This document shows positions 262-60,261 of a DNA stretch of 64,000 bases, piece by piece. This DNA comes from Escherichia coli. Its GTDB lineage: Bacteria; Pseudomonadota; Gammaproteobacteria; Enterobacterales; Enterobacteriaceae. The notes under the pieces were generated by a model. That model had not been told where the DNA came from, did no database searches, and saw only the letters and a program-made list of their open reading frames with translations. Made by a program: the position numbers and the translations under genes. The stretch is from the NCBI RefSeq assembly GCF_048403405.1, contig NZ_CP183136.1. One strand, 5' to 3'. How positions within the stretch are numbered: the first letter of the stretch is position 1; each line of letters begins with the position of its first letter.

Positions 262-418
262 ACTTATATTATCATTTTGCGGCATTGCTGTGTCGTCTGA
301 TATACCTCAATTTCATCAACCGGCTTTCCGGTTGTCTGTAAATATTGTGCCCGCGAAAAATGGTCTGGCAGGAGGCTGCACAGTTACCGGGTATATATAA
401 GATGGGTTCCCGCTTCGC

Positions 419-494
419 GGGGCTTCGGCCAGTCAGCATTATCACTCATATGATATTTTTGTGTGTGGCCTTCCATGCCGCTGTCGCGGCATAA
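419..494. repeat. Diverged copy of a short element (core CCTTCCATGCCGCTG.CGCGGCATAA) also found near 39.1 kb and 47.7 kb
   Basis: Shared core sequence read directly at three loci; boundaries approximate. Confidence 0.4.
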
Positions 495-1089: not shown

Positions 1090-1445
1090 AACAGGTTGGT
1101 GGTTCTCACCACCAAAAGCACCACACCCTACGCAAAAACAAGTTTTTGCTGATTTTTCTTTAATATCATAGAGTAGTATATGAAAAATTAGTATTGTCTT
1201 AACTCTCTTTATGATATTTAAAAAAGCGGTCGTCGACGCAGCTACAGCAACGCGCCGACACCGCTTTGTAGGGGTGGTACTGACTATTTTTATAAAAAAC
1301 ATTATTTTATATTAGGGGTGCTGCTAGCGGCGCGGTGTGTTTTTTTATAGGATACCGTCTAGGGGCGCTGCTAGCGGTGCGTCCCTGTTTGCACTATGAA
1401 TTCTAGTGTTTCGAAATTAACTTTGTTTTATGTTTAAAAAAGGTA
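1090..1445. other. oriT: Origin of transfer (oriT); predicted nic site on the minus strand near 1122/1123
   Basis: Minus strand reads GCGTAGGGTGT-GGTGCTTTT, the F/R100-type nic motif; sits between the transglycosylase gene and traM; AT-rich tracts. Confidence 0.8.
1310..1392. promoter_or_regulatory. Direct repeats consistent with TraM binding sites upstream of traM
   Basis: AGGGGTGCTGCTAGCGGCGCGGTG and AGGGGCGCTGCTAGCGGTGCG read as near-identical direct repeats. Confidence 0.5.
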
Positions 1446-3984: not shown

Positions 3985-4551
3985 ATGGAACACGGTGCCC
4001 GTTTAAGTACCAGTCGTGTAATGGCCATCGCCTTTATATTTATGTCAGTGCTTATTGTTCTCAGCCTCTCTGTTAACGTCATTCAGGGGGTGAATAACTA
4101 CCGTCTTCAGAATGAGCAACGCACTGCCGTGACGCCAATGGCATTTAATGCCCCCTTTGCCGTGTCACAGAACAGTGCCGACGCCTCTTATTTACAGCAG
4201 ATGGCGCTGTCATTTATTGCCCTCCGTCTGAATGTTTCATCAGAAACCGTCGATGCCTCACATCAGGCGCTTCTGCAATATATCCGCCCGGGCGCACAGA
4301 ACCAGATGAAAGTTATTCTGGCTGAAGAAGCGAAGCGTATTAAAAACGATAACGTGAACTCAGCCTTTTTCCAGACCAGTGTTCGTGTCTGGCCTCAGTA
4401 TGGCCGTGTGGAAATTCGAGGTGTGCTTAAAACCTGGATTGGTGATTCAAAACCTTTCACTGATATCAAACATTACATCCTTATTCTGAAGCGGGAAAAC
4501 GGGGTGACCTGGCTGGATAATTTCGGGGAAACAGACGATGAGAAAAAATAA
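3985..4551 (+). CDS. traE: TraE, pilus assembly protein
   Basis: 188-aa ORF with N-terminal membrane anchor; TraE family; conserved order. Confidence 0.9.
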
Positions 4552-37442: not shown

Positions 37443-37517
37443 ATGCCCGGAAAAGTTCAAGACTTCTTTCTGTGCTCACTCCTTCTGTGCAACATAAGTG
37501 CAGGATGGTGTGACTGA
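37443..37517 (+). CDS. tap: Tap (RepA6) leader peptide, translationally coupled to repA1
   Basis: 24-codon [27 protein letters not shown] whose stop overlaps the repA1 GTG start. Confidence 0.7.
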
Positions 37518-38367
37518 TCTTCACCAAACGTATTACCGCCAGGTAAAGAACCCGAATCCGGTGTTTACACCCCGTAAAGGTGCCGGAACGCTGAAGTTCT
37601 GCGAAAAACTGATGGAAAAGGCGGTGGGCTTCACCTCCCGTTTTGACTTCGCCATTCATGTGGCGCATGCCCGTTCGCGTGGTCTGCGTCGACGCATGCC
37701 ACCGGTGCTGCGTCGACGGGCAATTGATGCGCTGCTGCAGGGGCTGTGTTTCCACTATGACCCGCTGGCCAACCGCGTCCAGTGCTCCATCACCACACTG
37801 GCCATTGAGTGCGGACTGGCGACAGAGTCCGGTGCAGGAAAACTCTCCATCACCCGTGCCACCCGGGCCCTGACGTTCCTGTCAGAGCTGGGACTGATTA
37901 CCTACCAGACGGAATATGACCCGCTTATCGGGTGCTACATTCCGACCGACATCACGTTCACACCGGCACTGTTTGCCGCTCTCGATGTGTCTGAGGTGGC
38001 GGTGGCTTCCGCACGCCGCAGTCGTGTGGAATGGGAAAACAGACAGCGCAAGAAGCAGGGACTGGATGCACTGGGCATGGATGAACTGATAGCGAAAGCC
38101 TGGCGTTTTGTTCGTGAGCGTTTTCGCAGTTATCAGACAGAGCTTAAGTCCCGGGGAATAAAGCGTGCCCGTGCGCGTCGTGATGCGGACAGGGAACGTC
38201 AGGATATTGTCACCCTGGTGAAACGGCAGCTGACGCGCGAAATCGCGGAAGGGCGCTTCACTGCCAATCGTGAGGCGGTAAAACGCGAAGTTGAGCGTCG
38301 TGTGAAGGAGCGCATGATTCTGTCACGTAACCGTAATTACAGCCGGCTGGCCACAGCTTCCCCCTGA
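37510..38367 (+). CDS. repA1: RepA1, IncFII replication initiator
   Basis: GTG at 37510 gives [19 protein letters not shown]..., matching IncFII RepA1 along its length. Confidence 0.95.
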
Positions 38368-38399: not shown

Positions 38400-38700
38400 T
38401 GGAGGCATTCGCACGCCTGAAGCCCGTCGATGCACAAAAAAACAGCACCACATACAAAAAACAACCTCATCATCCAGCTTCTGGTGCATCCGGCCCCCCC
38501 TGTTTTCGATACAAAACACGCCTCACAGACGGGGAATTTTGCTTATCCACATTAAACTGCAAGGGACTTCCCCATAAGGTTACAACCGTTCATGTCATAA
38601 AGCGCCAGCCGCCAGTCTTACAGGGTGCAATGTATCTTTTAAACACCTGTTTATATCTCCTTTAAACTACTTAATTACATTCATTTAAAAAGAAAACCTA
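38400..38700. other. oriR, vegetative replication origin region (approximate)
   Basis: Perfect DnaA box TTATCCACA at 38543-38551 and AT-rich tract downstream of repA1. Confidence 0.6.
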
Positions 38701-39083
38701 TTCACTGCCTGTCCTGTGGACAGACAGATATGCACCTCCCACCGCAAGCGGCGGGCCCCGACCGGAGCCATTTTAGTTACAACACTCAAATACAAGCACC
38801 GGGAAAACCCCAGTCCAGCGCAGAACTGAAACCACAAAGCCCCTCCTCATAACTGAAAAGCGGCCCCGCCCCGGCCCGAAGGGCCGGAACAGAGTCGCTT
38901 TTAATTATGAATGTTGTAACTACATCATCATCGCTGTCAGTCTTCTGGCTGGAAGTTCTCAGTACACGCTCGTAAGCGGCCCTGACGGCCCGCTAACGCG
39001 GAGATACGCCCCGACTTCGGGTAAACCCTCGTCGGGACCACTCCGACCGCGCACAGAAGCTCTCTCATAGCTGAAAACGGGTA

Positions 39084-39217
39084 TAGTCTGGCAGGGCAAG
39101 GGATGGGTAAGGTGAAATCTATCAATCAGTACCGGCTTACGCCGGGCTTCGGCGGTTTTACTCCGGTATCACATGTAACCACAGCGTGCCGCCTTCCATG
39201 CCGCTGGCGCGGCATAA
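39084..39217. repeat. Copy of a short element (GGTAAGGTGAAA..CAGTACCGGCTTACGCCGG..GCCGCCTTCCATGCCGCTGGCGCGGCATAA) repeated near 47.7 kb in the same orientation
   Basis: Near-identical stretch at 47724-47815 and a diverged copy at 419-494; contains hairpin CCGGCTTACGCCGG. Confidence 0.6.
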
Positions 39218-39433
39218 GCATATGTTGGTGGCTGTGTCTGAAAGGTTATATACTCTGCATAAAACCTGACAACACGCAGATTGCCAGGCAAATGAGCATT
39301 ATGCATCCGGTTATCGCCTGCCTGTGAAACAATATCACCGGGGCGAATATCGATACTCTGACTCGTTATACCCATGCGTGCGGCATCAAAAAACCTGCAA
39401 TTGCCCTTTATTGAATGAAAGGGGGAGTCAATT

Positions 39434-39697
39434 ATGAATAGCACCACACATTACGAAAACGCCAATTTCCTGCGCGAGCTGGCCGAAAGCCTGCCTCGTA
39501 TTTTTCCAGAAGGCAGTACAGACAAGTCTGCACTATTGCAACGCCTCGCTAATGAAGAACTGGCACGGGCGGAATACGACGAACAGATCCGAGCGAAAGT
39601 TGCCGCTGCCCGCGCCGATAAGCGGCCGGGAATGAGTTCCGCGCAACTGCGCCAGCAACTACAGGGACGTTATCAGGAACTGCGCAATGAGTTATGA
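39434..39697 (+). CDS. Type II antitoxin (ParD/RelB-like)
   Basis: 87-aa ORF overlapping by 11 nt the downstream toxin ORF. Confidence 0.65.
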   Translation: MNSTTHYENANFLRELAESLPRIFPEGSTDKSALLQRLANEELARAEYDEQIRAKVAAARADKRPGMSSAQLRQQLQGRYQELRNEL

Positions 39698-39986
39698 AAT
39701 AGAATGGCGACCAGGTGCGATTGAGGATATAACGGCGTTGTTTGAATATCTGGTCGAGAATGCATCTCTTTGGGATGCAAGGAACGTGACAGAGCGTCTG
39801 ATCACTGCAACCGATCGCCTGGCTGATTACCCCAGGCTGTATGAAACGGATGAACGCTATGGTGAAGGGGTTCGCCGTATTAGCTTACTTGGACAGCATG
39901 TACTTTATGAAGTGAATGATGAGGCCAGTCGTGTCAATATCCTGGCGGTTGTAGGCCAGCGTCAGAATCCCCGATTCATTCTTTGA
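39687..39986 (+). CDS. Type II toxin of the RelE/ParE superfamily
   Basis: 99-aa ORF with RelE/ParE-like character, overlapping the upstream antitoxin. Confidence 0.7.
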   Translation: MSYEIEWRPGAIEDITALFEYLVENASLWDARNVTERLITATDRLADYPRLYETDERYGEGVRRISLLGQHVLYEVNDEASRVNILAVVGQRQNPRFIL

Positions 39987-40021
39987 GTGTCCGGCTTGGA
40001 ACTCCATCTTCAGAGAATCGA

Positions 40022-40687
40022 TCAACGTTCTTTAGCTCCTTCCACTAACAGCCGACCTATCTCAAACACCGCAGCTGACCGTCCCGACTTCACCGCTTCG
40101 GCTTTCTGTCCCTCAACAAACCAGTTATTACCGTCCGTTCGGACCAACTCAAACATCCATGACATATCGTAAACGTGTTCCGGGATCAGCGACCCTTCTC
40201 CGGCCAGAATACCCGCCGTTATGGAGTGGTTGCCCCCGTGCACAAAGCCAATACGCCAGGGCAACCACAGGTCAACATAGTGGTTGTTTTTATCTTGCTT
40301 CCACGGCTTCCCCTTATGGGTTCCAATGCGTGAAACGTTATCGATATAGCGTGGTAGGCTCCAAGGCCACGGCAGCACTATGTCGCTTGCCAGCGACAAC
40401 GGATAATCAGCGCCGTTCATCTCACACTCTTTCATCTTTTCGTAAGATTGTATTTGGGTAAGTCCCTTAAAGAAGAACTCCTGCGGGGTCATATCCGGGC
40501 GGGCATCTGTTCCCTCCTCAGCTACCGCCAGCAAGAAATCACTCTGTACTGGCCGCACGATAGCGCGAATGAGATCTGGTAGCGCCTTAACGGGTAGTTT
40601 CTCTGCCACAGAAAGCAGATGATTGAAGCGTTTTTTTTCATTGGCTATAGTTGCTTTATCTTTCTTGTTTCGGTTCCAGAACATCAC
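40022..40687 (-). CDS. Hypothetical protein, 221 aa, no recognised domain
   Basis: Clean ORF convergent with the TA pair, same strand as the mcb operon, separated from mcbG by about 570 bp without ORFs. Confidence 0.5.
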   Translation of the reverse strand: MMFWNRNKKDKATIANEKKRFNHLLSVAEKLPVKALPDLIRAIVRPVQSDFLLAVAEEGTDARPDMTPQEFFFKGLTQIQSYEKMKECEMNGADYPLSLASDIVLPWPWSLPRYIDNVSRIGTHKGKPWKQDKNNHYVDLWLPWRIGFVHGGNHSITAGILAGEGSLIPEHVYDMSWMFELVRTDGNNWFVEGQKAEAVKSGRSAAVFEIGRLLVEGAKER

Positions 40688-41256
40688 TGTCTGTAGCCCT
40701 CCTTATCGTGATCAGGATGATGGTTTTCATTCTAATGGTGTAGTAGTTTCACGTCACGCGCACGTGCATATTCTTCGAAAGCTTCGGCGTTAGCCGGTCA
40801 ACCAGGGGGTTGAGGCCCAACCGTACGAGATCGTACGCTAAGTTCATTTTTTGAGCAGAAGAGGTGAGTAAAGAAAACGAGGGTTTTGTTTACTCTTCCC
40901 GTCAATGCCAGTAGCCATGCGGTTTCAGGGACTTTCAGTGTTAATAAACTCGGTAATCAAATCAACGTAAACCTGCCTAACAACGCCACGACTTTATTGA
41001 CTTAAAATCATATAGTTAGCTTCTTAGCGTACGTTTCCGCTCCATTGGGCTTCAAACCCCACACCCAATGACATGAGAAAAGCTGGATCTGATTCTCAAA
41101 ATGCTGGGATACCCATCGAGATGGAGAACTCAGTCAATGTTCCATTCTTTCTGAAATATGTGTGGGGACACTGATCTGTCGGGAGCCGGATGCGGTAGTT
41201 CCGCAGGTCCGGTTCTGAGGAGGGGCCCGTCCGGGCAACCGGCGGGTCTACTCACC

Positions 41257-41820
41257 TCATCCCCCTACAACCACTCCCATTCGTTTAAGTATTTTTAAAC
41301 CTGCTTCCTGTGGTATCTTTATAGATAAGATCCTGTTTATCTCAGGATTTATATCGAGACCTTCTGTCATTGAAAAATCACAGTGAGACAAATCAGAATG
41401 TCTGAACTCTGTATTATTAAACTCCGAACCAGTAAAATCAGATTTACGAAGGTCTGTTTCCTCAAATAAACAATCACGGAAGCGACTGGATAAAAAAATA
41501 GATTTCTGTAACCGTAAACTAATAAAATCAACAAATCTCAAATCACAATTTACAAGAGAAAAAGTACAGGGAAACATAATGTCTGCTGCATTTACTCCTT
41601 GTAATAAACAATCTTTGAATTCACAGTCAATAAGTTTAAAAAAATTAAGTTTTAAATTCTTTATTGAGCAGTTTACGAAGCGACATTTTTCGAACTCACA
41701 ATCGCGAAAGTTAAAGTTGTCAAGCTGTATTCGTTCAAATATACAATTGTAATAATTTACACCTGATAATTCACTTTCACTGAGGTGTCGTTTTGTGATT
41801 CTTTTTTCTATTATATCCAT
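41257..41820 (-). CDS. mcbG: McbG, pentapeptide-repeat microcin B17 immunity protein
   Basis: 187-aa ORF made of pentapeptide-like repeats; last gene of the operon. Confidence 0.9.
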   Translation of the reverse strand: MDIIEKRITKRHLSESELSGVNYYNCIFERIQLDNFNFRDCEFEKCRFVNCSIKNLKLNFFKLIDCEFKDCLLQGVNAADIMFPCTFSLVNCDLRFVDFISLRLQKSIFLSSRFRDCLFEETDLRKSDFTGSEFNNTEFRHSDLSHCDFSMTEGLDINPEINRILSIKIPQEAGLKILKRMGVVVGG

Positions 41821-41823
41821 GTG

Positions 41824-42555
41824 TCAGTCTCCTGTTCCCATAACTTCTTTAATAAATGCCTTTTCTGGAGTTGTTTCATTATTGGATTGAATAAAATCAC
41901 TCATATCAGAATAACGATTTATACTATTTTTTGAAAGCATATAGAAGGGGATTTTATCTCTTGTTAATTCATCAAAAATATGAGTTGAGAAAAATACAGT
42001 TTTCCCGTCAGCGGTGATCTTATTTATCAGTTCCCATAACATCATTCTGTACTGAATATCAATGCCTACAGTTGGTTCATCCAGTAAAAATAAACGGGCA
42101 TTTTTGCAAAGCGTTAGCATCAAAGATATGATAAGCCAACGCTTCTCTCCATAACTTACCGTGTAAGTCCTTTTACGTCTTATTTTATCATAGCGAATGA
42201 AAAAATTATCATTCCATTTATGATTAAGCTCTGTCCATGCCTGTTTTTTAGTTAACTTATTGAAGCAGCAAATCAAATCAAGAACCTCCTCATTCCTTAG
42301 TGTACCTGAAAGATTTATGACTTGAGGTAGACTTACTAATTCTCCATCAGAGAAATTTCGCTTGAGGGTCCCTTCATAATTACTGACTCCGCCCCTGATA
42401 AGGTTAAAAAGAGTGGTCTTCCCGGCTCCATTTTCTCCAAGCAGACCTATCAACTCTCCCTGCTCAATCTTAAGCGACAGATTATTGAAAACAGGGGGTA
42501 AATTTACTTTATATGAAAAGCTCAGAGAGTTGATTTCTAAAAGAGGTATGGTCAT
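41824..42555 (-). CDS. mcbF: McbF, ABC transporter ATP-binding protein (microcin B17 export/immunity)
   Basis: Walker A GENGAGKTT; overlaps mcbE. Confidence 0.9.
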   Translation of the reverse strand: MTIPLLEINSLSFSYKVNLPPVFNNLSLKIEQGELIGLLGENGAGKTTLFNLIRGGVSNYEGTLKRNFSDGELVSLPQVINLSGTLRNEEVLDLICCFNKLTKKQAWTELNHKWNDNFFIRYDKIRRKRTYTVSYGEKRWLIISLMLTLCKNARLFLLDEPTVGIDIQYRMMLWELINKITADGKTVFFSTHIFDELTRDKIPFYMLSKNSINRYSDMSDFIQSNNETTPEKAFIKEVMGTGD

Positions 42556-43277
42556 TGAGAACTCCAGACTGGCTCAGTTTTGAAGGTTAGTGCTGAAATA
42601 ATACTTATGATTAACATTATACTATAGAAAAATATCGTCATCAGAGACAACTCCTGATCTGACTGGAGTATTGTAGAATAGATGGCGATAGGATTAACCT
42701 GATTTATCCAGTAAACGATCCCCTCATTATATTTTAATGATACAATTCCTGATACCATACAGACAGTTATTAATACAGAATAGATAGTGCTGGCTGTTTG
42801 GAATGTGACTCTGAACGATGCCATGAAAGTGAGTGAAACCATCATAAATGCATTTATGTATATCGATTTTAAAATAATCATTACTATTTGATAATCTGGA
42901 CTTGCCTGGAATCCTGTTAGTACGACTAAAATGAAAAAAAACACATACAAAATAGACATGATAAGTGAGGCTATTAATTGAGAACGAATAAATAATAGTC
43001 GACCATCCATATTATGCACGAAGGTAGCAATAAAACCACTTTCTCTTCTTCCGACCAGATACAGACAGTAATTAAACAGAACAACAGAAAAAGAAATGTA
43101 GCCTACAAACCATGATATTTGTTTTCCGAGCCATGCTGTATCACCATAATGAAGTTCAATTTCATTGAAATGAAGGAAAAAGAACAACACTGTAGGTGAC
43201 ATAATTGTCCATATTAAGCTGAAAGGGGTTCTGATTTGTTCCATCAGAAAAATTATCGCCATTTTTAATGTAACCAT
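42552..43277 (-). CDS. mcbE: McbE, ABC transporter permease (microcin B17 export/immunity)
   Basis: 241-aa polytopic membrane protein directly upstream of mcbF. Confidence 0.9.
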   Translation of the reverse strand: MVTLKMAIIFLMEQIRTPFSLIWTIMSPTVLFFFLHFNEIELHYGDTAWLGKQISWFVGYISFSVVLFNYCLYLVGRRESGFIATFVHNMDGRLLFIRSQLIASLIMSILYVFFFILVVLTGFQASPDYQIVMIILKSIYINAFMMVSLTFMASFRVTFQTASTIYSVLITVCMVSGIVSLKYNEGIVYWINQVNPIAIYSTILQSDQELSLMTIFFYSIMLIISIISALTFKTEPVWSSQ

Positions 43278-43286
43278 TTGTTATCC

Positions 43287-44477
43287 TTATGGGAATGGTA
43301 CCATCTTTGATTCTCTGACTTTAATACCGTCCCCGGTATGGTAAATTTTATTATTAATGTTTATTGCACCTGAGTTATTCATATGAAGGAAAAAATCAGG
43401 GCTTACTATTTTTGTGTACCAGACAAGGCTGTTACTTACTCTTTCCCTGGCATAGTAAACAAAAATATTATCAGAAATTTGTTGAAGATAGTTTAATAAA
43501 TTTGTGTCTGACGTAATATTTTCCTCAAGCGTTAACTTGACATCATCAGACAGTAGTACCGTATTTTCACACAAATCCGTAAACGACTCGTACTTGTTGC
43601 ATGACATAAAGTGACGCTGGTAACTATCAATGATGTCATCATCAGTATAACCGCCAATAAGAAAGTTGTGCAGGCATATATACGATTGCCACAATTCCAC
43701 TACGGATTTACAAAGTGCTTTTTTCAGACTATTAGCATAGGATAATCCGGTACTGTATTTTATTCGACTGATTTTGTTTTTTGTGCCATACAGGGTTAGT
43801 ACTGCGTGTCCAGGAGCTCCGGGCAGGGTGATATCGAAAATCCTGATATCTCCTTCTGACCTGAGAGCCAGTAAAATCTCATCTATATGATTTATGCCTG
43901 TTACTATTTCACTGGATATTTCAGTATTGGCTTTTCCCTGTAACCAGTAAAGAAGGAGGGACTGTCTCTCCATAAATTCACACAAGGAACCTTCTATGGC
44001 ATCGTTCAAACTACCATGAAAGCTACATCCGCATGTATCTCTGTCAGGATAAAATTTCAGATCATCTGCAGCGGTTATATTGTCGAGTGCAATTATGACT
44101 GCAGGTATTTCTTGTTGTTCAAGGCTAAACAGATTAAAGGCTCTGACCGTTTTAAATTTATGGGTTATGATTTCATCGCGGGTCAGTGATGAGATCTGAA
44201 AAAATGCTTCGGTAAAAGCCTTTGCAGCAGATGGAGGCATCATCTCATATAATGTTTTCTGACCACCGGTGACTATCTCATTAAAAAAATGACGGCGTTC
44301 AAAATATTCACCTATTGCCCCCTGAATTGACTTCAGAGTTTCACCGGCCGCGCTGGCTGGTGTAATACGCTCATAGTCCCATATCTGAGAAAACGTTGGC
44401 ATATTTCTGTTCAGTTTTGGACTCATGGCCATTGTGGCCGGCCATGCGGACATAAGGTTACTGTAGACATTTATCAT
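43287..44477 (-). CDS. mcbD: McbD, YcaO-type cyclodehydratase of microcin B17 synthetase
   Basis: 396-aa ORF in operon position; matches McbD. Confidence 0.9.
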   Translation of the reverse strand: MINVYSNLMSAWPATMAMSPKLNRNMPTFSQIWDYERITPASAAGETLKSIQGAIGEYFERRHFFNEIVTGGQKTLYEMMPPSAAKAFTEAFFQISSLTRDEIITHKFKTVRAFNLFSLEQQEIPAVIIALDNITAADDLKFYPDRDTCGCSFHGSLNDAIEGSLCEFMERQSLLLYWLQGKANTEISSEIVTGINHIDEILLALRSEGDIRIFDITLPGAPGHAVLTLYGTKNKISRIKYSTGLSYANSLKKALCKSVVELWQSYICLHNFLIGGYTDDDIIDSYQRHFMSCNKYESFTDLCENTVLLSDDVKLTLEENITSDTNLLNYLQQISDNIFVYYARERVSNSLVWYTKIVSPDFFLHMNNSGAININNKIYHTGDGIKVRESKMVPFP

Positions 44478-45276
44478 CGTTTACATCTCCAAAAAACTGA
44501 ACGATCAGTGGCGCTACAGTCCTCTGATCCAGATTCATTGTTTTTGCTACGTATGAATCGGTATATCCCGCCCATACCCGGTTTTTCAGTCCTATTTGAT
44601 CTGCAACCAATACTGCGTTCTGATACATCGAACCTGTTTCCATTAAGGCCATCCGGTATCCTCTGTAGCGATATTTGAACAAAGCTTTTTCAAAAATAAT
44701 GCAATAGACGAGAGCAAAATGGGGTTTACCAAGACGTTCCGAATCCCCACCGGACAGGCTTCGGTAGAGTGACTGAGTATTACATGTAGCAACAGGTTCC
44801 AGTGCCTGACTTAGCGGCAGGTAGTGATAAACATTAGTTCCTGCCTGCCAGTTTTCTGTATTTTCAGATAATCTGCATAAAAAAACTTCAATCGGGTACA
44901 ATGCCCCCCCAGAAGGATAAGGTCTTCTTACAGAGCCAGGATCAGGTGAGCTGAATGCATTGACTAATAACTTTTCAATAGTACGAATGGAAAGTTTATT
45001 TTTGTCGCAAAAGTTTATTCCTGATGGGAGCCTTTCACGACTAAAATTATGTGATGAGGATATGTTTATTACGGAGCTGAAACCTGGCCTGAAGAGAACT
45101 TCTTTATTTTCAAATTTCTCCAGATGGGCAAGAGGTACCGCGGACACGAAAGTTCGTTCAGCAAATTCGGGGAGGGAAGCAAAGTTACCTCTGACATGAA
45201 AATCTTTAACAATGGCCAGAACTTCAGGATCTGTGTAATGCGTTACTTCCACTAAAGAGAGTTCGTGTTTTGACAT
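44458..45276 (-). CDS. mcbC: McbC, FMN-dependent dehydrogenase of microcin B17 synthetase
   Basis: 272-aa ORF in operon position; matches McbC. Confidence 0.9.
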   Translation of the reverse strand: MSKHELSLVEVTHYTDPEVLAIVKDFHVRGNFASLPEFAERTFVSAVPLAHLEKFENKEVLFRPGFSSVINISSSHNFSRERLPSGINFCDKNKLSIRTIEKLLVNAFSSPDPGSVRRPYPSGGALYPIEVFLCRLSENTENWQAGTNVYHYLPLSQALEPVATCNTQSLYRSLSGGDSERLGKPHFALVYCIIFEKALFKYRYRGYRMALMETGSMYQNAVLVADQIGLKNRVWAGYTDSYVAKTMNLDQRTVAPLIVQFFGDVNDDKCLQ

Positions 45277-46065
45277 GTTATCTCTCCAGACAGCTGCAAG
45301 CCTGCCAGTGAATTACCGGCTCTTTACATAAAATACAGGTGATTAAATCAGCGCTAACAGATGACATAAAGTTATCGACATGACTTTTAACCAGTGAAGT
45401 ACCTGTCAACTCCTGAAGTCGCCGTTTTATTAAATGATAGCTGAATCCTCTTTCTGATTCGCCTAAAGCCAATGCTGGTAGTGTCATTTGGTATTTTTTC
45501 AGTAACTGAAGTAAGTTTGCCCAGGACATTTCGTTACGTCTGAAGCTTTTTTCTTCCCTGCTCAGCCATCTATCTATATGACAAAAATGGCAGGGAGTAC
45601 CAAGATCAGGTGAATATACTCCATCTATCCTGAATGACTCCTTTAGGTAGTAGCTTTGGATGAAGGCAACACCAGGGTTACTTTCAAATTTTGAATAGAT
45701 TCTTTTTACAATGTCTGAATGATAGTTTTCGAGATGTAACCAGATTAGTGTTGAATCGCTCACATTAATATTATTATCTTTTATATCAATGATATGAGAA
45801 ACAAAAACACCATCAGATTTCCATTGTTCCCGGGCATTACTGAAAAGATGTGGAACATCGCTTATTATGACTGAGTTTACCCAGAGAGGTGATGTTTTCG
45901 TTTTATTTATCACGCCTGTGGTAATAAGAAACTCTTTGCCCTTGTCTTTATCAATAAGCGATTCGTCCAGTAGTTTATCAAGGAGGTATTCAGAAATAAT
46001 ACCCTGTTTGGATCGTAGGCTTTCGAGTACTTTTTTCATTCCCTCATGTGTAATGTCTACTGAAG

Positions 46066-46074
46066 AAATGTAGG
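46066..46074. repeat. Target-site duplication AAATGTAGG, left copy
   Basis: Identical 9 bp directly flank both IS ends. Confidence 0.9.
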
Positions 46075-47131
46075 GGCTTTGTTGAATAAATCGAACTTTT
46101 GCTGAGTTGAAGGATCAGATCACGCATCTTCCCGACAACGCAGACCGTTCCGTGGCAAAGCAAAAGTTCAAAATAACCAACTGGCCCACCTACAATAAAG
46201 CCCTCATCAACCGTGGCTCCATAACTTTCTGGCTGGATGATGAAGCTATTCAGGCCTGGTATGAGTCAGCAACACCTTCTTCACGAGGCAGACCTCAGCG
46301 CTATTCTGACCTTGCCATCACGACTGTGCTGGTCATTAAACGCGTATTCAGGCTGACCCTGCGCGCTGCGCAGGGCTTTATTGATTCCATTTTTTCTCTG
46401 ATGAACGTTCCGCTACGCTGCCCGGATTACAGCTGTGTCAGCAGGCGGGCAAAGTCGGTTAATATCAGTTTCAAAACGCCCACCCGGGGTGAAATCGCAC
46501 ACCTGGTAATTGATTCCACCGGGCTGAAGGTCTTCGGTGAAGGCGAGTGGAAAGTCAAAAAGCATGGTCAGGAACGCCGCCGTATCTGGCGTAAGCTGCA
46601 TCTGGCAGTTGACAGCAACACACATGAAATCATCTGTGCAGACCTGTCGCTGAACAATGTGACGGACTCAGAAGCCTTCCCGGGTCTTATCCGGCAGACT
46701 CACAGAAAAATCAGGGCAGCATCGGCAGACGGCGCTTACGACACCCGGCTCTGTCACGATGAACTGCGGCGTAAGAAAATCAGCGCGCTTATCCCACCCC
46801 GAAAAGGCGCGGGTTACTGGCCCGGTGAATATGCAGACCGTAACCGTGCTGTTGCGAATCAGCGAATGACCGGGAGTAATGCGCGGTGGAAATGGACAAC
46901 AGATTACAACCGTCGCTCGATAGCGGAAACGGCGATGTACCGGGTAAAACAGCTGTTCGGGGGTTCACTGACGCTGCGTGACTACGATGGTCAGGTTGCG
47001 GAGGCTATGGCCCTGGTACGAGCGCTGAACAAAATGACGAAAGCAGGTATGCCTGAAAGCGTGCGTATTGCCTGAAAACACAACCCGCTACGGGGGAGAC
47101 TTACCCGAAATCTGATTTATTCAACAAAGCC
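46075..47131 (+). mobile_element. IS903-type insertion sequence (IS5 family), 1057 bp
   Basis: 18-bp terminal inverted repeats GGCTTTGTTGAATAAATC at both ends, single transposase ORF, 9-bp direct duplication. Confidence 0.9.
46152..47075 (+). CDS. IS903 transposase (DDE)
   Basis: GTG at 46152 within ORF 46107-47075 gives 307 aa; fills the IS. Confidence 0.85.
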   Translation: MAKQKFKITNWPTYNKALINRGSITFWLDDEAIQAWYESATPSSRGRPQRYSDLAITTVLVIKRVFRLTLRAAQGFIDSIFSLMNVPLRCPDYSCVSRRAKSVNISFKTPTRGEIAHLVIDSTGLKVFGEGEWKVKKHGQERRRIWRKLHLAVDSNTHEIICADLSLNNVTDSEAFPGLIRQTHRKIRAASADGAYDTRLCHDELRRKKISALIPPRKGAGYWPGEYADRNRAVANQRMTGSNARWKWTTDYNRRSIAETAMYRVKQLFGGSLTLRDYDGQVAEAMALVRALNKMTKAGMPESVRIA

Positions 47132-47140
47132 AAATGTAGG
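47132..47140. repeat. Target-site duplication AAATGTAGG, right copy
   Basis: Identical 9 bp directly flank both IS ends. Confidence 0.9.
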
Positions 47141-47257
47141 TAATAAGCAGGGTCTTTGTATTTCTGGAAATTATCTCAAACGGCAGAATATTGATCATAT
47201 CTTTTCCTTTTTTAATATCAGGGAGCACCATGCTCCCTGAACGGTTAATTCAACGTA

Positions 47258-47467
47258 TCAGATATGTGAACCACTTCCGCCGCTGCCACCGTTTCCACCA
47301 CTACAACCGTTGCTGCAACCACCACAACCGCCACCTTGACCACCGCAGCTACCGCCGCCGCCGCCGCCGCCACCACCACCAATGCCAACACCTAATGGAG
47401 ACTGGCGTGATAATTTAAGAGCATCAACGGACAAAACTACACCAAATTCACTCGCTTTTAATTCCAT
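47258..47467 (-). CDS. mcbA: McbA, microcin B17 precursor peptide
   Basis: 69-aa ORF with leader then Gly/Ser/Cys-rich core (GGGGGGGGGGSCGGQGGGCGGCSNGCSGGNGGSGGSGSHI). Confidence 0.95.
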   Translation of the reverse strand: MELKASEFGVVLSVDALKLSRQSPLGVGIGGGGGGGGGGSCGGQGGGCGGCSNGCSGGNGGSGGSGSHI

Positions 47468-47620
47468 AAGGACTCCTTTTTTAAGGGAAATTAATGCTTA
47501 TGACATCTGAATAGTATGTTGGCCAACACTAGTTACTTGCCGTAATTAACTATATTTTGCAATGATAATTTGAACTAAATTTGTACGCTTGTTAAATATT
47601 TAATAATAATATCAGTTGGT
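47468..47620 (-). promoter_or_regulatory. Probable mcb operon promoter region
   Basis: AT-rich sequence immediately upstream of mcbA; individual promoter elements not resolved. Confidence 0.35.
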
Positions 47621-47723
47621 TATGTTTATGCTGTTATTGTTTTTTTACAAAAATTAATATTGTGTTTACATTTTGCTTTCAGTTGCTGTCAGGATGTCAC
47701 ACTACCCCTTTAAGCCCCCACTG

Positions 47724-47815
47724 GTCTGGCAGGGCCGGGGGTGGGTAAGGTGAAACCTGTCAATCAGTACCGGCTTACGCCGGTATCATATGCAACAACT
47801 GAGTGCCGCCTTCCA
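47724..47815. repeat. Second copy of the element at 39084-39217, shorter by an internal gap
   Basis: Shares GGTAAGGTGAAA..CAGTACCGGCTTACGCCGG..GCCGCCTTCCAT in the same orientation. Confidence 0.6.
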
Positions 47816-47996
47816 TATCATATCATTTGCCCGTTTCCCGCCGTGCAGATCCGGTTTCCGGCTGAAGTGGATCCAGACCTGATTTGTTGCTGAGTATCGG
47901 TAAAAGAGCGGCTTATAATCTATTCTGAAACATGGCAAGTGAATCTGGGCTGTATAATTCCGGCAAGTGTCATCTGTATTTAAAGGTCGTGTGAGT

Positions 47997-48449
47997 ATGA
48001 AATTTATGGAATGTGCTGTCCGGGATGTGATTTATGGGACCAATGTCCGTATTGTCAAACCGGTCAACATTTATGAATGTGAACTCAGGGACAATGTGTT
48101 TGTCGGCCCCTTCGTTGAGATACAGAAAGGCTGTGTCATTGGTAGTGGAAGCCGGATACAGTCGCACACGTTTATTTGTGAGAACGTAACACTGGGGGAG
48201 AACTGCTTCATTGGTCATAACGTGACGTTCGCCAACGATCTGTTTCGTTCAGGAGCACCAGATCCGTCACCGGATAACTGGATCAGCATTACCCTGGGGG
48301 ATTCGGTTACTGTTGGCAGTGGAGCCATTATTCTGTCTCCGTATATATGCAGCGGAGCTGTTATTGGTGCGGGGGCAGTTGTAGTAAAACCGATTGAGAA
48401 CAAAGGCATTTATGCAGGAAACCCGGCAAGACTGATCAGAATATTATGA
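47997..48449 (+). CDS. Hexapeptide-repeat (left-handed beta-helix) acyltransferase
   Basis: Tandem imperfect hexapeptide repeats (IGSGSRIQSHTFICENVTLGENCFIGHNVTF...); ATG at 47997 within ORF 47967-48449. Confidence 0.7.
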   Translation: MKFMECAVRDVIYGTNVRIVKPVNIYECELRDNVFVGPFVEIQKGCVIGSGSRIQSHTFICENVTLGENCFIGHNVTFANDLFRSGAPDPSPDNWISITLGDSVTVGSGAIILSPYICSGAVIGAGAVVVKPIENKGIYAGNPARLIRIL

Positions 48450-48851: not shown

Positions 48852-49205
48852 TTAGTTTATTAACTTCATCGCATTCTTTTTTGTCTCCTCATCACTTTTT
48901 TGCTCCGATTGTGAAGAGGACTGAATGATTGTTGAAGAATTTAAATCGGCCATCTCTTTTGGAAATAGCGATCTCAATATATTCACGATATCTGAAAATG
49001 TGGTTTCTTTCGTCAGCAGTTCACATAAAAGGAAAGGGGCCCTGGGATCTTGTCTGTATAAGGCCAGACCTGCCGTCAGTGCAGCCCGGTTAAGGCGGCT
49101 GCGTTCCCCTTGCGGGATACTGTCCAGTGTATCACAAACAATTTTATCTGTTTGATTTACATCTGGATTTAGCTTAAAGGCAATGGTTCTGCGCTTGTCC
49201 ATCAT
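48852..49205 (-). CDS. parR: ParR (StbB), partition adaptor/repressor
   Basis: 117-aa ORF matching R1-type ParR; directly downstream of parM. Confidence 0.9.
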   Translation of the reverse strand: MMDKRRTIAFKLNPDVNQTDKIVCDTLDSIPQGERSRLNRAALTAGLALYRQDPRAPFLLCELLTKETTFSDIVNILRSLFPKEMADLNSSTIIQSSSQSEQKSDEETKKNAMKLIN

Positions 49206-50167
49206 TAATTACCTATGAGATACATACCGTTAACTAAATCATATTGAGAGTTATTGGTTTTAAAAAAACGTTCATCACGAATCTGTGTGTGTTTTTTTAC
49301 TGCATCGCATATTAATTCTGCGCCACCACCTATAACCATAACATGAGTATAACCAGAAAATTCATTGAGTGTATTTAATACACGTTGCTCAAGTTTACGA
49401 AGTGCTTCATTCATTGCTTCGGTGACTATTGATATTTTGTTCTCATCATTAATTCGTTGCTTCAGATAGTTATTATCTTTTCTGTGAATAATTATATCAT
49501 CAGCAAGATAGCTACTTCCTTTTGTTCTCGCAAGAGAAAGGGCATCTTTTACTGCAGATGTGACCAGAGATACACCAAGAGATGAGTCTCCGTATATTTT
49601 ACTGATCCCCGATAATTTCCCCATTACCTGAGAAATATCTAATGTGGTGCCCCCGAGATCTATAATTAATAAAGAATCTAACTCATCCAGTTCTTGTAGA
49701 ACTTCATAACCTGCCGGTATAGATTCAGGCATGACTTTTACATCTTTTATTGTGAATGTATCCCCACCATTTAATGTAATTTTTTTCCGGAAGTTTGCTT
49801 TCTTACGCTCAATATTTTCCGTATTGGGTTGGTTATTCCTGTCGTAATACTCTGTCAGAGGAAGTGTGCAAACAATATCCACTTCGCTTACCGGCAGACC
49901 ACTGGTCAGTAAGGCGTGGTGCACCGCAACGACATTAACGTCGCTGTATTGCCATGCGATATTGGTTGTGACTACAGCATCCGGGCTGATTGGATCAAAT
50001 GAATACTGTTCGCCGTTCAGTGTGTAGTTAAAGACCTTTTTATCACCAAAAGAAACTGCCCACTCGCGTTTGAAGCTGTTCGGGCTAATGTGCTGTTTAA
50101 TTGTTCCGTCGCTTTCCTGCCACTGTAGTTTGATGTTTGTTGAACCGTCATCAATGAATACCAACAT
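49205..50167 (-). CDS. parM: ParM (StbA), actin-like partition ATPase
   Basis: 320-aa ORF matching R1-type ParM. Confidence 0.95.
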
Positions 50168-50335
50168 TTATAAAACTCCTTATGGTGTTTTTTTGGTGTT
50201 TGTTTGGGTGTGTTTTGGGCTTTAAATGGGTTTATTTGTCAAGTTTACCCCATTTTAACTATCAATCAATGATTATTTGTCTTGTTTTGGTGTTTTGTTG
50301 GGCTTGGTATGGGTTGTTTTTGGGTTTTGTTTGGC
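50168..50335. promoter_or_regulatory. parC: parC-like centromere/promoter region
   Basis: Clustered short direct repeats (GGTGTTTT/GGGTGTGTTTTGG-type) upstream of parM; boundaries approximate. Confidence 0.55.
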
Positions 50336-50347
50336 GGATAACAAAAG

Positions 50348-50660
50348 ATGTCGCCGGGCTCCTCTTTTTACTGCGCCGGCTGACGCGGCGCGGCATAAAC
50401 GCTGCCTGTGGTCAGTGTCCCGCGTCCGGTGGGCACGGGACGGGCGCTTTTACCGCTCCCGGCTGGCGTCGGTGACAGTGTACGCCAGCCTGTCGCCCTT
50501 TTCTGATGAACGCCCTTCAAGCCGCTTTCGCGGCATAGCCTTGCCGTCAGAAAGACGACGGCTGCGGTATTCCACGGTCGGCCTGACCCGTTACCGGACG
50601 CGGTGAACAGCCCACAGGCAGCGGGGAACGGGCGCCACAGGGGCGCCCTCCCGATGCTCC
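50348..50660 (+). repeat. Large repeat, family A copy 1 (about 315 bp, GC-rich, structured); candidate Frpo-type single-strand promoter
   Basis: Near-identical to 51652-51970; ORF-track entries 50277-50606 and 51567-51911 are the same sequence translated. Confidence 0.7.
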
Positions 50661-51651: not shown

Positions 51652-51970
51652 GATGTCGCCGTGCTCCTCTTTTTACTGCGCCGGCTGACGCGGCGCGGCA
51701 TAAACGCTGCCTGTGGTCAGTGTCCCGCGTCCGGCGGGCACGGGGCGGGCGCTTTTACCGCTCCCGGCTGGCGTCGGTGACAGTGTACGCCAGCCCGTCG
51801 CCCTTTTCTGATGAACGCCCTTCAAGCCGCTTTCGCGGCATAACCTTGCCGTCAAAAAGACGACGGCTGCGGTATTCCACGGTCGGCCTGACCCGTTACC
51901 GGACGCGGTGAACAGCCCACAGGCAGCGGGGAACGGGCACCACAGGGGTGCCCTCCCGGTGCCCTCTGTA
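51652..51970 (+). repeat. Large repeat, family A copy 2; candidate single-strand promoter upstream of the methyltransferase operon
   Basis: Near-identical to 50348-50660. Confidence 0.7.
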
Positions 51971-59039: not shown

Positions 59040-59695
59040 ACTGATGATGTTGTTGTTCCTGCTACTGCTACTGCTACTGCTACTGCTACTGCTACTGCTA
59101 CTGCTACTGCTACTGTTCTTCTTTTTTCTGCTGCTCTGATTACTGTCTGTTTTGTTGTTCTCCTGCTTATGCCTTTTCCGGGCGTCCCCCTGGCGGGGCG
59201 GGCTGTCGTGAACGGAGCCAGCGGAGCTGTCTCCGCCCTGGCGGGCTTCCATCCCTGACGCAAAAACCCGGGTTTGCAGCGACCGGAACGGTCGCGCCAC
59301 CCTTGTCGCGCCGTGGCCTGCGCTCCCGGCATCCCGGCAAAAGACGCCGGGATGTAAGGAGCAACGCCGTTTCGCAAACCGCGCTTCACGTCGTTGCGGC
59401 GGGTCCCTGCCCGTTGTTCTGTCCGGTGCCATTCACCTGTTTAAGCCCCTGTCGCCGGGGGCATAGACAGCCACAACCTGCCGCACTGACTGTCCAGGGT
59501 AAATGAACAGCCCACAAAATTTTTTACCCAAAACCCGGTAAAAAATTTTGCGTTCTGCCCAGGACAGGTGCGTCAGGCCGTGGCAGTGATGCCCCATGCG
59601 GCGAAGGTTCTCAAACAGGTGATGGTGAATACCGGAGGGAACAAAAGGCAGGTCCCCGCAAAACGTCAAAACCGCGGCTCCCGAAACTCAACAGA
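59040..59695 (+). repeat. Large repeat, family B copy 2, upstream of ssb; Frpo-type single-strand promoter candidate
   Basis: Near-identical to 55790-56395 apart from the hexanucleotide tract and a short variable segment. Confidence 0.7.
59059..59115 (+). repeat. Hexanucleotide microsatellite (CTGCTA), about 9.5 units
   Basis: Read directly; absent from the paralogous repeat copy, which has an irregular pyrimidine tract instead. Confidence 0.9.
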
Positions 59696-59733
59696 TGATG
59701 GGGGCTGAAAACATCAACAGAAGGAGACACATC

Positions 59734-60261
59734 ATGGCAGTTCGTGGCATTAACAAGGTCATTCTTGTCGGTCGTCTGGGAAAAGATCCGGAAGTCCGTT
59801 ACATCCCCAACGGGGGCGCAGTGGCAAACCTGCAGGTGGCCACGTCAGAAACCTGGCGCGACAAACAGACGGGGGAAATGAAGGAGCAGACGGAATGGCA
59901 CCGCGTGGTGCTGTTCGGCAAGCTCGCGGAAGTGGCAGGTGAATATCTGCGTAAGGGGGCGCAGGTCTACATTGAAGGCCAGCTTCGCACCCGTAGCTGG
60001 GAAGATAACGGTATTACCCGTTACGTCACCGAAATCCTTGTTAAAACCACGGGCACCATGCAGATGCTGGGGAGTGCACCACAGCAGAACGCTCAGGTGC
60101 AACCGCAGCCTCAGCAGAATGGTCAGTCACAGAGTGCTGACGCGACGAAAAAAGGGAGCGCGAAAACGAAAGGCCGTGGACGTAAGGCTGCGCAGCCGGA
60201 GCCTCAGCCGCAACCACCGGAGGGGGAGGATTACGGGTTTTCAGACGATATCCCGTTCTGA
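59734..60261 (+). CDS. ssb: Plasmid single-stranded DNA-binding protein
   Basis: 175-aa ORF with SSB fold sequence and acidic C-terminal tail DDIPF; ATG at 59734 within ORF 59695-60261. Confidence 0.95.

Follow-up and report, generated by a model that had tools for sequence, protein, structure and literature searches.

Direct repeats around the microcin B17 region of an IncFII plasmid: the last conserved block of the replicon, a paralogue near oriT, and an orphan fragment

In the IncFII plasmids R1 and R100 (NR1), leading-strand synthesis reportedly starts at a primase-dependent site downstream of oriR, the G site or ssiA, which is said to have been described by Masai and Arai in 1989, Bernander et al. 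in 1992, and Jiang et al. in 1993. The start reportedly lies ~380-400 bp past oriR in R1, and in NR1 it is close to where repA4 ends at its 3' side. The origin of phage G4 is the prototype of a signal used by DnaG only. The leading regions of F-like plasmids hold another type of signal, the single-stranded DNA promoters Frpo/ssi/ssp, which Masai and Arai are said to have described in 1997. These structured signals of the transferred strand are strand-specific, recur in direct orientation, and are implicated in the priming of complementary-strand synthesis (Samuel et al. 2024, PMC11541004; bioRxiv 10.64898/2026.01.09.698686). According to a review, two ter sites of R1 separate its minimal oriR from the point at which the leading strand starts (PMC10331603).

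In the 64,000-nucleotide stretch of Escherichia coli plasmid DNA analysed here (the window), an 8.6-kb accessory segment with the microcin B17 (mcb) operon is bracketed by two direct repeats, copies A and B, and a third copy, C, lies elsewhere (Table 1). Copy A belongs to the same replicon family as the G site of R1 and R100, with the same order of repA, oriR, ter, and element. Its distance from oriR matches that reported for the start site, and its orientation fits rightward leading-strand synthesis, with the hairpins and a CTG on the template strand. The G site comparison differs in two respects: copies B and C are outside any replicon, and the signal may also take in a block just upstream of copy A (38965-39050).

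Table 1. Features of the window discussed in the text.
Feature	Position	Strand	Remark
Copy C	361-494	+	full-length, diverged paralogue
CAG of copy C	369-371		
Hairpin 1 of copy C, CCCGC-TTC-GCGGG	408-420		
3' hairpin of copy C	475-492		
oriT nic-like sequence AGGGTGT/GGTGCTTT	1115..1129	-	motif match; nic consensus of F and R100
DnaA box TTATCCACA	38543..38551	+	left end of oriR; conserved across genera
ter-like Tus-binding core GTTGTAACTA	38774..38783	-	leftward-facing member of inverted pair
ter-like Tus-binding core GTTGTAACTA	38913..38922	+	rightward-facing member of inverted pair
Copy A	39084-39217	+	complete, resident
CAGG of copy A	39092-39095	+	invariant
Second CAG of copy A	39127-39129	+	
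Hairpin 1 of copy A	39132-39145		
Alternative hairpin 2 of copy A	39140-39154		
CACATG box of copy A	39170-39175		
3' hairpin of copy A, ATGCCGC-TGGC-GCGGCAT	39198-39215		
Toxin-antitoxin pair	39434..39986	+	antitoxin 39434-39697; RelE/ParE-family toxin 39687-39986
221-aa gene	40022..40687	-	annotation: hypothetical or DUF6710
Microcin B17 operon, mcbG to mcbA	41257..47467	-	mcbA 47258-47467; mcbB interrupted by IS903
IS903, 1057 bp	46075..47131	+	in mcbB; IS5-family transposase 46107-47075
Copy B	47722-47816	+	decayed orphan
Acyltransferase segment	47817..48449	+	gene 47997-48449; left end adjoins copy B

The replicon block and its copies

Copy A is the last conserved block, structured and ~135 bp long, of the basic replicon of IncFII (RepFIIA-type) plasmids. 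The replicon is ordered as repA1, oriR, the pair of ter-like cores, and copy A; repA1 stops at 38367, copy A is found 717-850 bp beyond it, and 162 bp separate the second core from copy A. A search of the window found no ter-like cores beyond this pair. By analogy with R1 and NR1, oriR presumably extends from ~38535 to 38722. Among the 5000 best-scoring plasmid records, 4998 hold the element over at least 80% of its length, identity is at least 90% in all but two, and the offset from repA is constant (~0.7-0.9 kb past the stop). Among 32 diverged replicons (RepA 73-79% identical), 22 carry the element, from other genera such as Pantoea, Erwinia, Yersinia, and Hafnia, and in them it keeps its strand and commonly lies ~775 bp downstream of the repA stop. 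With an element-containing probe, 5426 complete E. coli genomes gave 5768 plasmid places versus 123 chromosomal ones. In R100 the element is at 40382-40526, and a plus-strand ORF in the repA4 position (40033-40419) begins just after ori, spans the ter sites, and ends within the 5' part of the element.

Most of the 5000 best matches stop at ~39216-39218 of the window, which is the 3' end of copy A, and cross-genus conservation falls from ~0.6 to 0.19 past ~39230. Since IncFII likeness ends there, cargo recurrently starts right after copy A.

All three copies share one orientation. The sequence-only reading had noticed two bracketing direct repeats, the second with an internal gap, and both observations hold with the refined limits of Table 1. 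Two blocks align between A and B (39086-39145 with 47724-47783, 92% identity; 39158-39199 with 47775-47816, 86% identity), separated by a 21-bp indel with the flanks TTACGCCGG/TTACTCCGG; the longest perfect match is 24 bp. A diverged third copy beside the transglycosylase gene is likewise present, with an extent of 361-494 rather than the 419-494 first given. By nhmmer in the 64-kb window, A matches B with E=1.2e-16 and C over its full length with E=4-6e-7. A profile built solely from 17 replicons of other genera found exactly three sites in the window, A (7e-23), C (4e-9), and B (1e-7), and none besides. Therefore, the likeness of the three copies is far above chance. Two further candidates, 50507-50538 and 51812-51843, were rejected as members: only a 30-nt hairpin matched (E 0.008-0.05), and the 17-replicon profile did not recover them.

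A putative leading-strand priming site

The most probable reading, to which we assign a probability of about 0.6, is that the element is the leading-strand priming zone (G site) of IncFII plasmids, with A as the resident copy, C as a paralogue, and B as a relic of mosaic assembly. Under this scheme, oriR would be opened in a RepA- and DnaA-dependent manner, and the helicase would unwind rightward and expose the minus strand, on which the hairpins of the element would remain free of SSB. DnaG would then start the primer at the CTG that is the minus-strand counterpart of the invariant CAGG, or possibly at that of the second CAG, and Pol III would extend it rightward as the leading strand. Copy A would thus be the functional resident priming site, and the start mapped in R1 and NR1 may be exactly this block.

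The CAGG is the same in all 20 sequences compared, and two hairpins are found in the element alignment by RNAalifold. Both sides of the pair are changed in 6 of 12 base pairs versus 0.7 expected, and 97.5% of cells are paired; none of 500 shuffles reaches the observed level, and slid controls collapse. The CAG adjoining hairpin 1 is not kept in the diverged replicons.

The likeness to the phage G4 origin is architectural: within ~130 nt, a template-strand CTG has several stable hairpins on its 5' side. The minus strand of both A and B shows (T)ACTG after a GC-rich hairpin, and G4 has ...GCCGCCGTCC-CTACTG; however, the invariant CTG is ~36 nt from the nearest hairpin in the element versus 3 nt in G4. 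Since no significant sequence similarity between the element and the G4 complementary-strand origin was found on either strand, the label 'G4-type' rests on architecture, not homology. The Frpo/ssi/ssp signals resemble the element as structured, strand-specific, directly repeated sequences with a putative part in priming, but they are long hairpins of the 300-nt class that rebuild -35 and -10 boxes for RNA polymerase, whereas the element has 135 nt, short hairpins, and no promoter boxes. It is also unrelated in sequence to the large leading-region repeats of the window itself.

The covariation fits either strand, and DNA or RNA alike. It is equally compatible with an element that acts as RNA, whether as a structured 3'-UTR, a transcript-end or processing element, or a small RNA, with copy A placed after the ORF in the repA4 position and copy C after a DUF932 gene, ~130 nt past its stop in F. 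The E. coli-type copy has GTTTT directly after hairpin 2, and two C-type variants are G·U-compatible on the plus strand. However, the T-run is not kept in the diverged replicons, the conserved 3' hairpin lacks a U-tract on both strands, an Rfam search gave no family match at any copy, and no promoter-like site was found in or before the elements. The constant distance to oriR and ter is also easier to reconcile with a replication signal than with a transcript feature, and a role as RNA is considered unlikely.

A different cis-acting site is a lesser possibility, namely a PriA-type (phiX174-type) primosome site, a duplex bound on the double strand by a host or plasmid protein, or part of the stability and termination determinant of the repA4 region, with 38965-39050 as the actual primase site. 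This upstream block is hairpin-rich and better conserved (0.85-0.99 column identity), and the true priming signal might lie wholly or partly within it; the lack of sequence similarity to G4 points the same way. The whole repA4 region is also needed for stable maintenance, as TraDIS of pEC958 indicated (PMC4398462), which agrees with the priming zone too. However, copy C duplicates the 39084-39217 block without the upstream block, and therefore 39084-39217 appears to be an autonomous module. Moreover, an invariant CAGG that has hairpins on its template-5' side agrees with a DnaG start. R1 is not known to depend on the PriA primosome for its replication.

Copy C is an old paralogue of the replicon element near oriT. 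It sits between convergent genes, the DUF932 gene (plus strand) and an SLT transglycosylase gene (minus strand, 585-1124), and it is conserved in 4189 F-like plasmids, F itself included. The orientation of the nic motif makes the minus strand the transferred one, so that copy C is ~630-750 nt from nic on that strand, and the minus strand is also the leading-strand template at copy A. Copy C may plausibly prime the first complementary-strand fragment in the recipient. The two C-type variants form G·T on the plus strand, corresponding to A·C on the minus strand, and this mildly favours the plus strand or a relaxed constraint. Since copy C is absent from F-like plasmids of the Klebsiella and Enterobacter types, it is not essential for F-type transfer.

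Copy B and the composite cargo

Copy B retains the 5' box (CAG 47730-47732) with the invariant CAGG, a G-rich tract, a second CAG (47765-47767) beside the perfect 7-bp hairpin TACCGGC-TTAC-GCCGGTA (47768-47785), and a CATATG box. It has lost two of three hairpins, that is, the 21-nt segment of hairpin 2 and the whole 3' hairpin. Its identity is 89.2% to copy A versus 93.7-94.7% to the elements of R100 and pJNE151685-2. It is confined to mcb plasmids, ~80-100 in number (~83 and 102 records in two counts), and both of its edges are module junctions. With its hairpins lost and its sequence nearer the R100 type than its own copy A, copy B appears to be a relic orphaned where mosaic segments join: a fragment from another IncFII lineage, probably with little or no function, which past recombination between F-like plasmids may have left between mcb and the acyltransferase-parMR segment. 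pMRE600-2, with four element copies in one orientation, offers a parallel in the half-copy beside tir-pemIK, which has its own internal deletion; like copy B, it is a partial, decaying right-end piece between independently assorting modules, as in other orphan replicon fragments of IncF plasmids. The left edge of copy B is within ~10 nt of the natural 5' edge common to A and C, and in this it differs from such fragments, as random breakage would not predict it.

It is doubtful that copy B is a working extra priming site, kept for faster complementary-strand synthesis across mcb on the transferred or leading-strand template strand. It is oriented as A and C, the motifs named above are retained, and it is ~99% conserved in all mcb plasmids; however, these plasmids are all nearly identical, and the conservation is therefore uninformative. 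Furthermore, both hairpins that are conserved or covarying in every replicon copy are absent from B, and the comparable orphan of pMRE600-2 is decaying as well.

The cargo between A and B is composite. Gene names were taken from near-identical plasmids as annotated by their depositors or by PGAP, and the content first proposed (toxin-antitoxin pair, 221-aa gene, mcb operon, and IS903) agrees with them. An ncbifam scan gave a sub-threshold match to RelB antitoxin and a match to IS5-family transposase, and no match for the toxin or the 221-aa protein. A separate 9-bp target duplication (AAATGTAGG at 46066-46074 and 47132-47140) flanks IS903, which is missing from most other mcb plasmids, as their 90% coverage and intact McbB show. 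Two plasmids that lack mcb, pJNE151685-2 and pMRE600-2, have copy A together with the toxin-antitoxin pair, and the 221-aa gene lies in the segment missing from pJNE151685-2. A ColV/ColIa plasmid has the acyltransferase segment by itself, its left boundary falling at ~47817 of the window, and homology to a diverged mcb locus of Klebsiella ends at ~47564, short of copy B. Since these segments assort independently and IS903 brought its own duplication, the 8.6-kb module is not a unit.

The sequence-only reading had taken the repeats to mark a recurrent site of cargo integration, or to allow loss of the whole module by homologous recombination. If the module were mobile and excised by recombination between the copies, these would be its target duplication or att-like sites; they do flank accessory genes in direct orientation, and IncFII cargo does start right after copy A; that part of the proposal stands. 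The repeats themselves are not derived from insertion, as copy A is resident at this position in thousands of plasmids whose cargo is unrelated. Copy B is truncated, internally deleted, and nearer other lineages than A, no integrase or recombinase was found in the 8.6-kb module, its segments move separately, and perfect identity between A and B is at most 24 bp. Neither a single-copy empty site nor an A×B recombinant junction was found in PLSDB or the 5426 complete E. coli genomes, which speaks against the suggested loss. In one mcb-less relative, copy A and the toxin-antitoxin pair are kept and copy B is missing. In the only such relative with both flanks close, the junctions are at ~39996 and ~47923, outside the repeats. 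The model of insertion and excision is thus largely refuted and highly improbable. A deletion between A and B would also remove the toxin-antitoxin pair.

Overall, the bracket arose incidentally from mosaic assembly beside a sequence common to all IncFII plasmids and is not a device for insertion and excision. The bracketing repeats, though real, largely reflect ordinary plasmid mosaicism.

Copy A and the boundary of the IncFII replicon

The window covers an F-like plasmid (IncFII, pMccB17 type) almost in full, and in it a hairpin element of ~135 nt occurs three times in the same orientation (copies A, B, and C; see the table of features). By nhmmer, copies A and B match with E=1e-16 and copies A and C with E~5e-7; a profile built from 17 non-E. 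coli replicons recovered copy A (7e-23), copy C (4e-9), and copy B (1e-7), with no further match in the window. The A/B alignment consists of two blocks, 39086-39145 against 47724-47783 (92% identity) and 39158-39199 against 47775-47816 (86% identity), separated by a 21-bp indel with flanks TTACGCCGG/TTACTCCGG. Copy B ends in ...CCTTCCAT, without the terminal hairpin of copy A, ATGCCGC-TGGC-GCGGCAT. Therefore, the sequence-only reading was right that direct repeats bracket the ~8.6-kb cargo (toxin-antitoxin pair, 221-aa gene, mcb operon, and IS903) and that the second repeat has an internal gap. The diverged third copy that it placed beside the transglycosylase gene is also present, but it is full-length and not confined to 419-494.

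Features of the window, with window positions
Feature	Position	Strand	Remark
Copy C	361-494		between 3' ends of DUF932 gene (+) and SLT transglycosylase gene (-)
nic-like motif	1115-1129	-	AGGGTGT/GGTGCTTT
tra genes	~1.9 to 35 kb	+	
(QQP)n tract	26619-26921		~30 tandem 9-bp units
repA1	37498-38367		
oriR DnaA box	38543-38551		upstream of copy A
ter-like core (GTTGTAACTA)	38774-38783	-	inverted pair with 38913-38922
ter-like core (GTTGTAACTA)	38913-38922	+	inverted pair with 38774-38783
Conserved block	38965-39050		between second ter site and copy A
Copy A	39084-39217		
IS903	46075-47131		1057 bp; 9-bp duplication AAATGTAGG at 46066-46074/47132-47140
Copy B	47722-47816		
parR/parM	48852-50167	-	
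Iteron clusters	50174-50338		just upstream of parM
Direct repeats, 300 bp	50341-50640/51646-51945		97% identity
Direct repeats, ~590 bp	55807-56393/59114-59700		90-96% identity
188-aa ORF	59695-60261		putative ssb
Leading-region genes	beyond parR/parM to 64 kb	+	

A 150-nt probe of copy A matched at least 5000 PLSDB plasmids. Among the 5000 best-scoring records, 4998 cover at least 80% of the probe, and identity is at least 90% in all but 2 of these 4998. The element lies at ~1570-1720 in records that begin at repA, and the majority of alignments stop at window 39216-39218, which is its 3' end. With RepA1 as bait and one genome per species, 32 IncFII-like replicons with RepA 73-79% identical were collected from Pantoea, Erwinia, Yersinia pestis, Hafnia, Mixta, Izhakiella, Citrobacter, Klebsiella, and Enterobacter; 22 of them carry the element, in every case on the repA strand and typically ~775 bp past the repA stop. 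Copy A occupies this fixed position (~0.7-0.9 kb past the repA stop, beyond oriR and the ter sites, on the repA strand), and copies B and C lie outside the replicon. In the conservation profile of the post-repA region across genera, the conserved blocks are oriR, the ter sites, 38965-39050, and then the element, and identity falls to 0.19 beyond ~39230. The element, as the last block before this collapse, therefore ends the conserved IncFII replicon.

The two ter-like cores are the only ones in 64 kb, and they are placed as the R1 terR sites are, past oriR and short of the point where the leading strand starts. For R1, a review (PMC10331603) puts two ter sites in the interval from the minimal oriR to the start of leading-strand synthesis. 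The R100 record (L046) has the element at 40382-40526, and a + strand ORF at the repA4 position (40033-40419) starts just past ori, spans the ter sites, and ends in the 5' part of the element. TraDIS of pEC958 showed that the repA4 region is needed for maintenance (PMC4398462).

A chromosomal dispersed repeat of the REP, BIME, or MITE kind was considered and rejected: a probe that includes the element, run against 5426 complete E. coli genomes, found 5768 plasmid places versus 123 chromosomal ones, the median genome having one place, and the window holds three copies only. Near-identical E. coli-type or enterobacterial IncFII replicon contigs also occur in assemblies labelled as a Lachnospiraceae MAG, Streptomyces morookaense, Candidatus Nanosynbacter, and Acinetobacter idrijaensis (L009, L011, L013, and L039), most likely as contamination or by mis-binning.

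Fold of the element and its probable role in leading-strand priming

In an alignment of 20 sequences, the element opens with a 5' box that contains an invariant CAGG; a G-rich tract and a CTATCAA motif follow, then hairpin 1 (CCGGC-TNC-GCCGG) overlapping an alternative hairpin 2 (CGCCG-GGCTA-CGGCG), and finally a CATAT box and a 3' hairpin (ATGCCGC-N3-4-GCGGCAT). RNAalifold predicted hairpin 1 and the 3' hairpin, with 97.5% of cells paired, and both are present and paired in copies A and C. Both-side changes occur in 6 of 12 pairs as against 0.7 in shuffles (none of 500 shuffles reached 6), a signal that is the same for DNA or RNA and for either strand, and that is lost when pairing partners are slid. 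Copies C of F-like plasmids vary too little for a separate covariation test. Because hairpin covariation exceeds both the shuffled and the slid controls, it appears that the element functions as a folded single strand; wobble asymmetry between strands is too sparse to tell which strand folds. Single-sequence folding energy is unremarkable for copies A and B (z -1.0 to -1.6), and copy C has z -2.7 to -2.9.

Several other identities were examined. Rfam gave no family match at any of the three copies. A promoter was rejected since no promoter-like hexamers lie in or around copies A or B, and a terminator since the one weak terminator-like hairpin is not kept across genera. The Frpo/ssp single-stranded DNA promoter is a long hairpin that rebuilds -35/-10 hexamers upstream of a leading-region gene; copies A and B lack promoter hexamers and have short stems, and copy C lies between convergent gene ends, so this identity was not adopted.

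Probable Frpo/ssp-type elements are found elsewhere, in the two large direct-repeat families of the leading region, both of which lie upstream of + strand leading-region genes. One 590-bp copy ends at the start of the 188-aa ORF, whose naming is taken from size and position. The 300-bp family has in common with the element only a GCCGC-N4-GCGGC hairpin; its copies were rejected as members since only a 30-nt hairpin is alike (E 0.008-0.05) and the independent profile missed them. Among other repeats of the window, the iterons are T/G-rich and spaced by 11 bp, as expected for a parC-type centromere, and the (QQP)n tract is encoded near the C terminus of an ORF ending ...GDDF, a putative TraD.

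The R1 leading strand is reportedly primed by primase alone at the "G site", ~380-400 bp past oriR, and that of NR1 is said to start near the 3' end of repA4. Both descriptions presumably fall on window ~39090-39130, inside copy A, which is the next conserved block past the ter sites. With a probability of roughly 0.6, copy A belongs to a known kind of site, the zone in which the IncFII replicon starts its leading strand (single-strand initiation). Because IncFII replication proceeds in one direction only, away from repA, the - strand is the template of the leading strand. DnaG starts at the trinucleotide CTG, and the invariant CAGG of the + strand corresponds to CTG on the - strand, with the covarying hairpins to its right, on the template-5' side. 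A helicase loaded at oriR would expose the - strand, the hairpins of the element would resist SSB, and DnaG would prime at the CTG of 39092-39094, or at 39127-39129, a trinucleotide that adjoins hairpin 1 in E. coli-type copies. Pol III would then carry the primer rightward, and the ter pair on the left would halt the returning fork.

The block at 38965-39050 is the most conserved post-repA stretch across genera (column identity 0.85-0.99), more so than the element; its GC-rich sequence contains hairpins nested in one another, such as CCCGAC-TTC-GGG-TAAA-CCC-TC-GTCGGG. The block may belong to the priming signal, or be that signal itself. The general layout resembles that of the phage G4 origin, with hairpins on the template-5' side of CTG when the element is read on the - strand. 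As for homology to the G4 complementary-strand origin, blastn against 50,697 phages gave nothing significant, and Smith-Waterman local alignment scores of the G4 origin with the element (both strands) and with the upstream block fell within the shuffled range.

Copy B and the composite cargo

Copy B is found only alongside mcb; PLSDB has 83-102 such records, and there are 83 among the complete E. coli genomes. Its identity is 89.2% with the copy A of its own plasmid versus 93.7-94.7% with the R100 and pJNE151685-2 elements, so copy B is not a local duplicate of copy A. It keeps hairpin 1 and has lost hairpin 2 and the 3' hairpin, both of which are kept in every replicon copy. By these comparisons, copy B appears to be a decayed orphan of the element. 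Both of its edges are junctions. The right edge meets an acyltransferase segment that starts at ~47817 and is found alone in a ColV/ColIa plasmid; on its left is the mcb promoter region, where homology with a diverged mcb locus of Klebsiella ends at ~47564, well short of copy B. The cargo is thus a composite and not a unit.

Stray pieces of the element also occur elsewhere. In pMRE600-2 (L047), IS elements come after copy A and the toxin-antitoxin pair, and at 22102-22186, beside its partition genes, the orphan 3' half of an R100-type element, with an internal deletion of its own, is joined to tir-pemIK. Partial second copies lie directly past the resident one in an Enterobacter replicon (L025, 4772-4877) and an Izhakiella replicon (L021, 4817-4902), and all of these orphan or tandem pieces share the orientation of the resident copy. 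Recombination among F-like plasmids, all of which share the block, therefore repeatedly leaves stray pieces of it behind.

The proposal that the repeats mark a recurrent cargo integration site survives in one respect: cargo repeatedly begins at the 3' end of copy A (alignments stop at 39216-39218), but the rest of that proposal found no support. Repeats made by integration, whether a target-site duplication or of the att type, were rejected since identity between copies A and B is 89%, an indel and a truncation set them apart, and copy B is closer to other lineages; moreover, no recombinase was found in the module, and neither PLSDB nor the 5426 genomes yielded an empty site carrying a hybrid copy. 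The one near hit, pJNE151685-2 (L002), lacks the 221-aa gene, mcb, and copy B, and has other breakpoints: copy A and the toxin-antitoxin pair are followed by ~50 unique bases and the acyltransferase upstream region. Its join at 3989-4050 connects window 39996, on the toxin gene side, with 47923, and since the ~50 bp are foreign to both window flanks, this plasmid did not arise from the mcb arrangement by deletion alone.

Loss of the module by recombination between copies A and B is possible in principle but unsupported: no match in PLSDB or the 5426 complete E. coli genomes spans a synthetic A/B junction. The longest stretch without mismatch between copies A and B measures 24 bp, at the lower limit for RecA-dependent exchange, and deletion would remove the toxin-antitoxin pair, which should select against deletants.

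The main result is a correction, as the repeats define neither a mobile mcb island nor a built-in deletion switch. To predict loss of microcin B17 through A x B recombination is unwarranted, and mcbB is already broken in the window plasmid by IS903, inserted ~66 bp into the gene with a perfect target duplication. Most other mcb plasmids have mcbB intact (855 bp). Maturation of microcin B17 is probably knocked out here, and the immunity and export genes remain. For annotation, a block that is present in nearly all IncFII plasmids and lies beside variable DNA will recur as "flanking repeats" wherever F plasmids are mosaic or have several replicons, and such repeats are to be recognised as part of the replicon.

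Copy C near oriT

Copy C is conserved, at 90% or above, in 4189 F-like plasmids, F among them, and lies by the SLT gene in F, pSE11-2, and pMRE600-2. It is weak (E 2.6e-4) in a Salmonella IncFIB/IncFII plasmid (L040) and absent from the four Klebsiella- or Enterobacter-type F-like plasmids examined. It is an old paralogue of the replicon element. Since the nic-like motif is on the - strand, the - strand is the one transferred, and it is also where copy A would act; copy C follows the 5' end into the recipient at a distance of ~630-750 nt.

Recent single-cell work argues that the incoming F strand is primed repeatedly and that F conversion is not abolished by rifampicin (bioRxiv 10.64898/2026.01.09.698686). 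A primase site at copy C would fit such repeated, rifampicin-resistant priming, although we regard this hypothesis as doubtful. It is conceivable, if rather unlikely, that the element is a portable, strand-specific DnaG priming module, used twice on the same strand in E. coli/Salmonella-type F-like plasmids and scattered as stray copies by recombination. The site downstream of oriR would then serve the vegetative leading-strand start, copy C, ~0.7 kb from nic, would provide the primer for the first complementary-strand fragment on the entering T-strand, independently of RNA polymerase, and stray copies such as B would spread through recombination at the shared block.

The only part likely to be new to specialists is that the replicon element has, with support from covariation, a paralogue at an oriT-proximal site on the transferred strand. 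F-like plasmids encode no primase; if copy C is a primase site, it would be a testable cis element for a transcription-free start of the complementary strand in the recipient, and would give rifampicin-resistant priming of F conversion a concrete site in cis.
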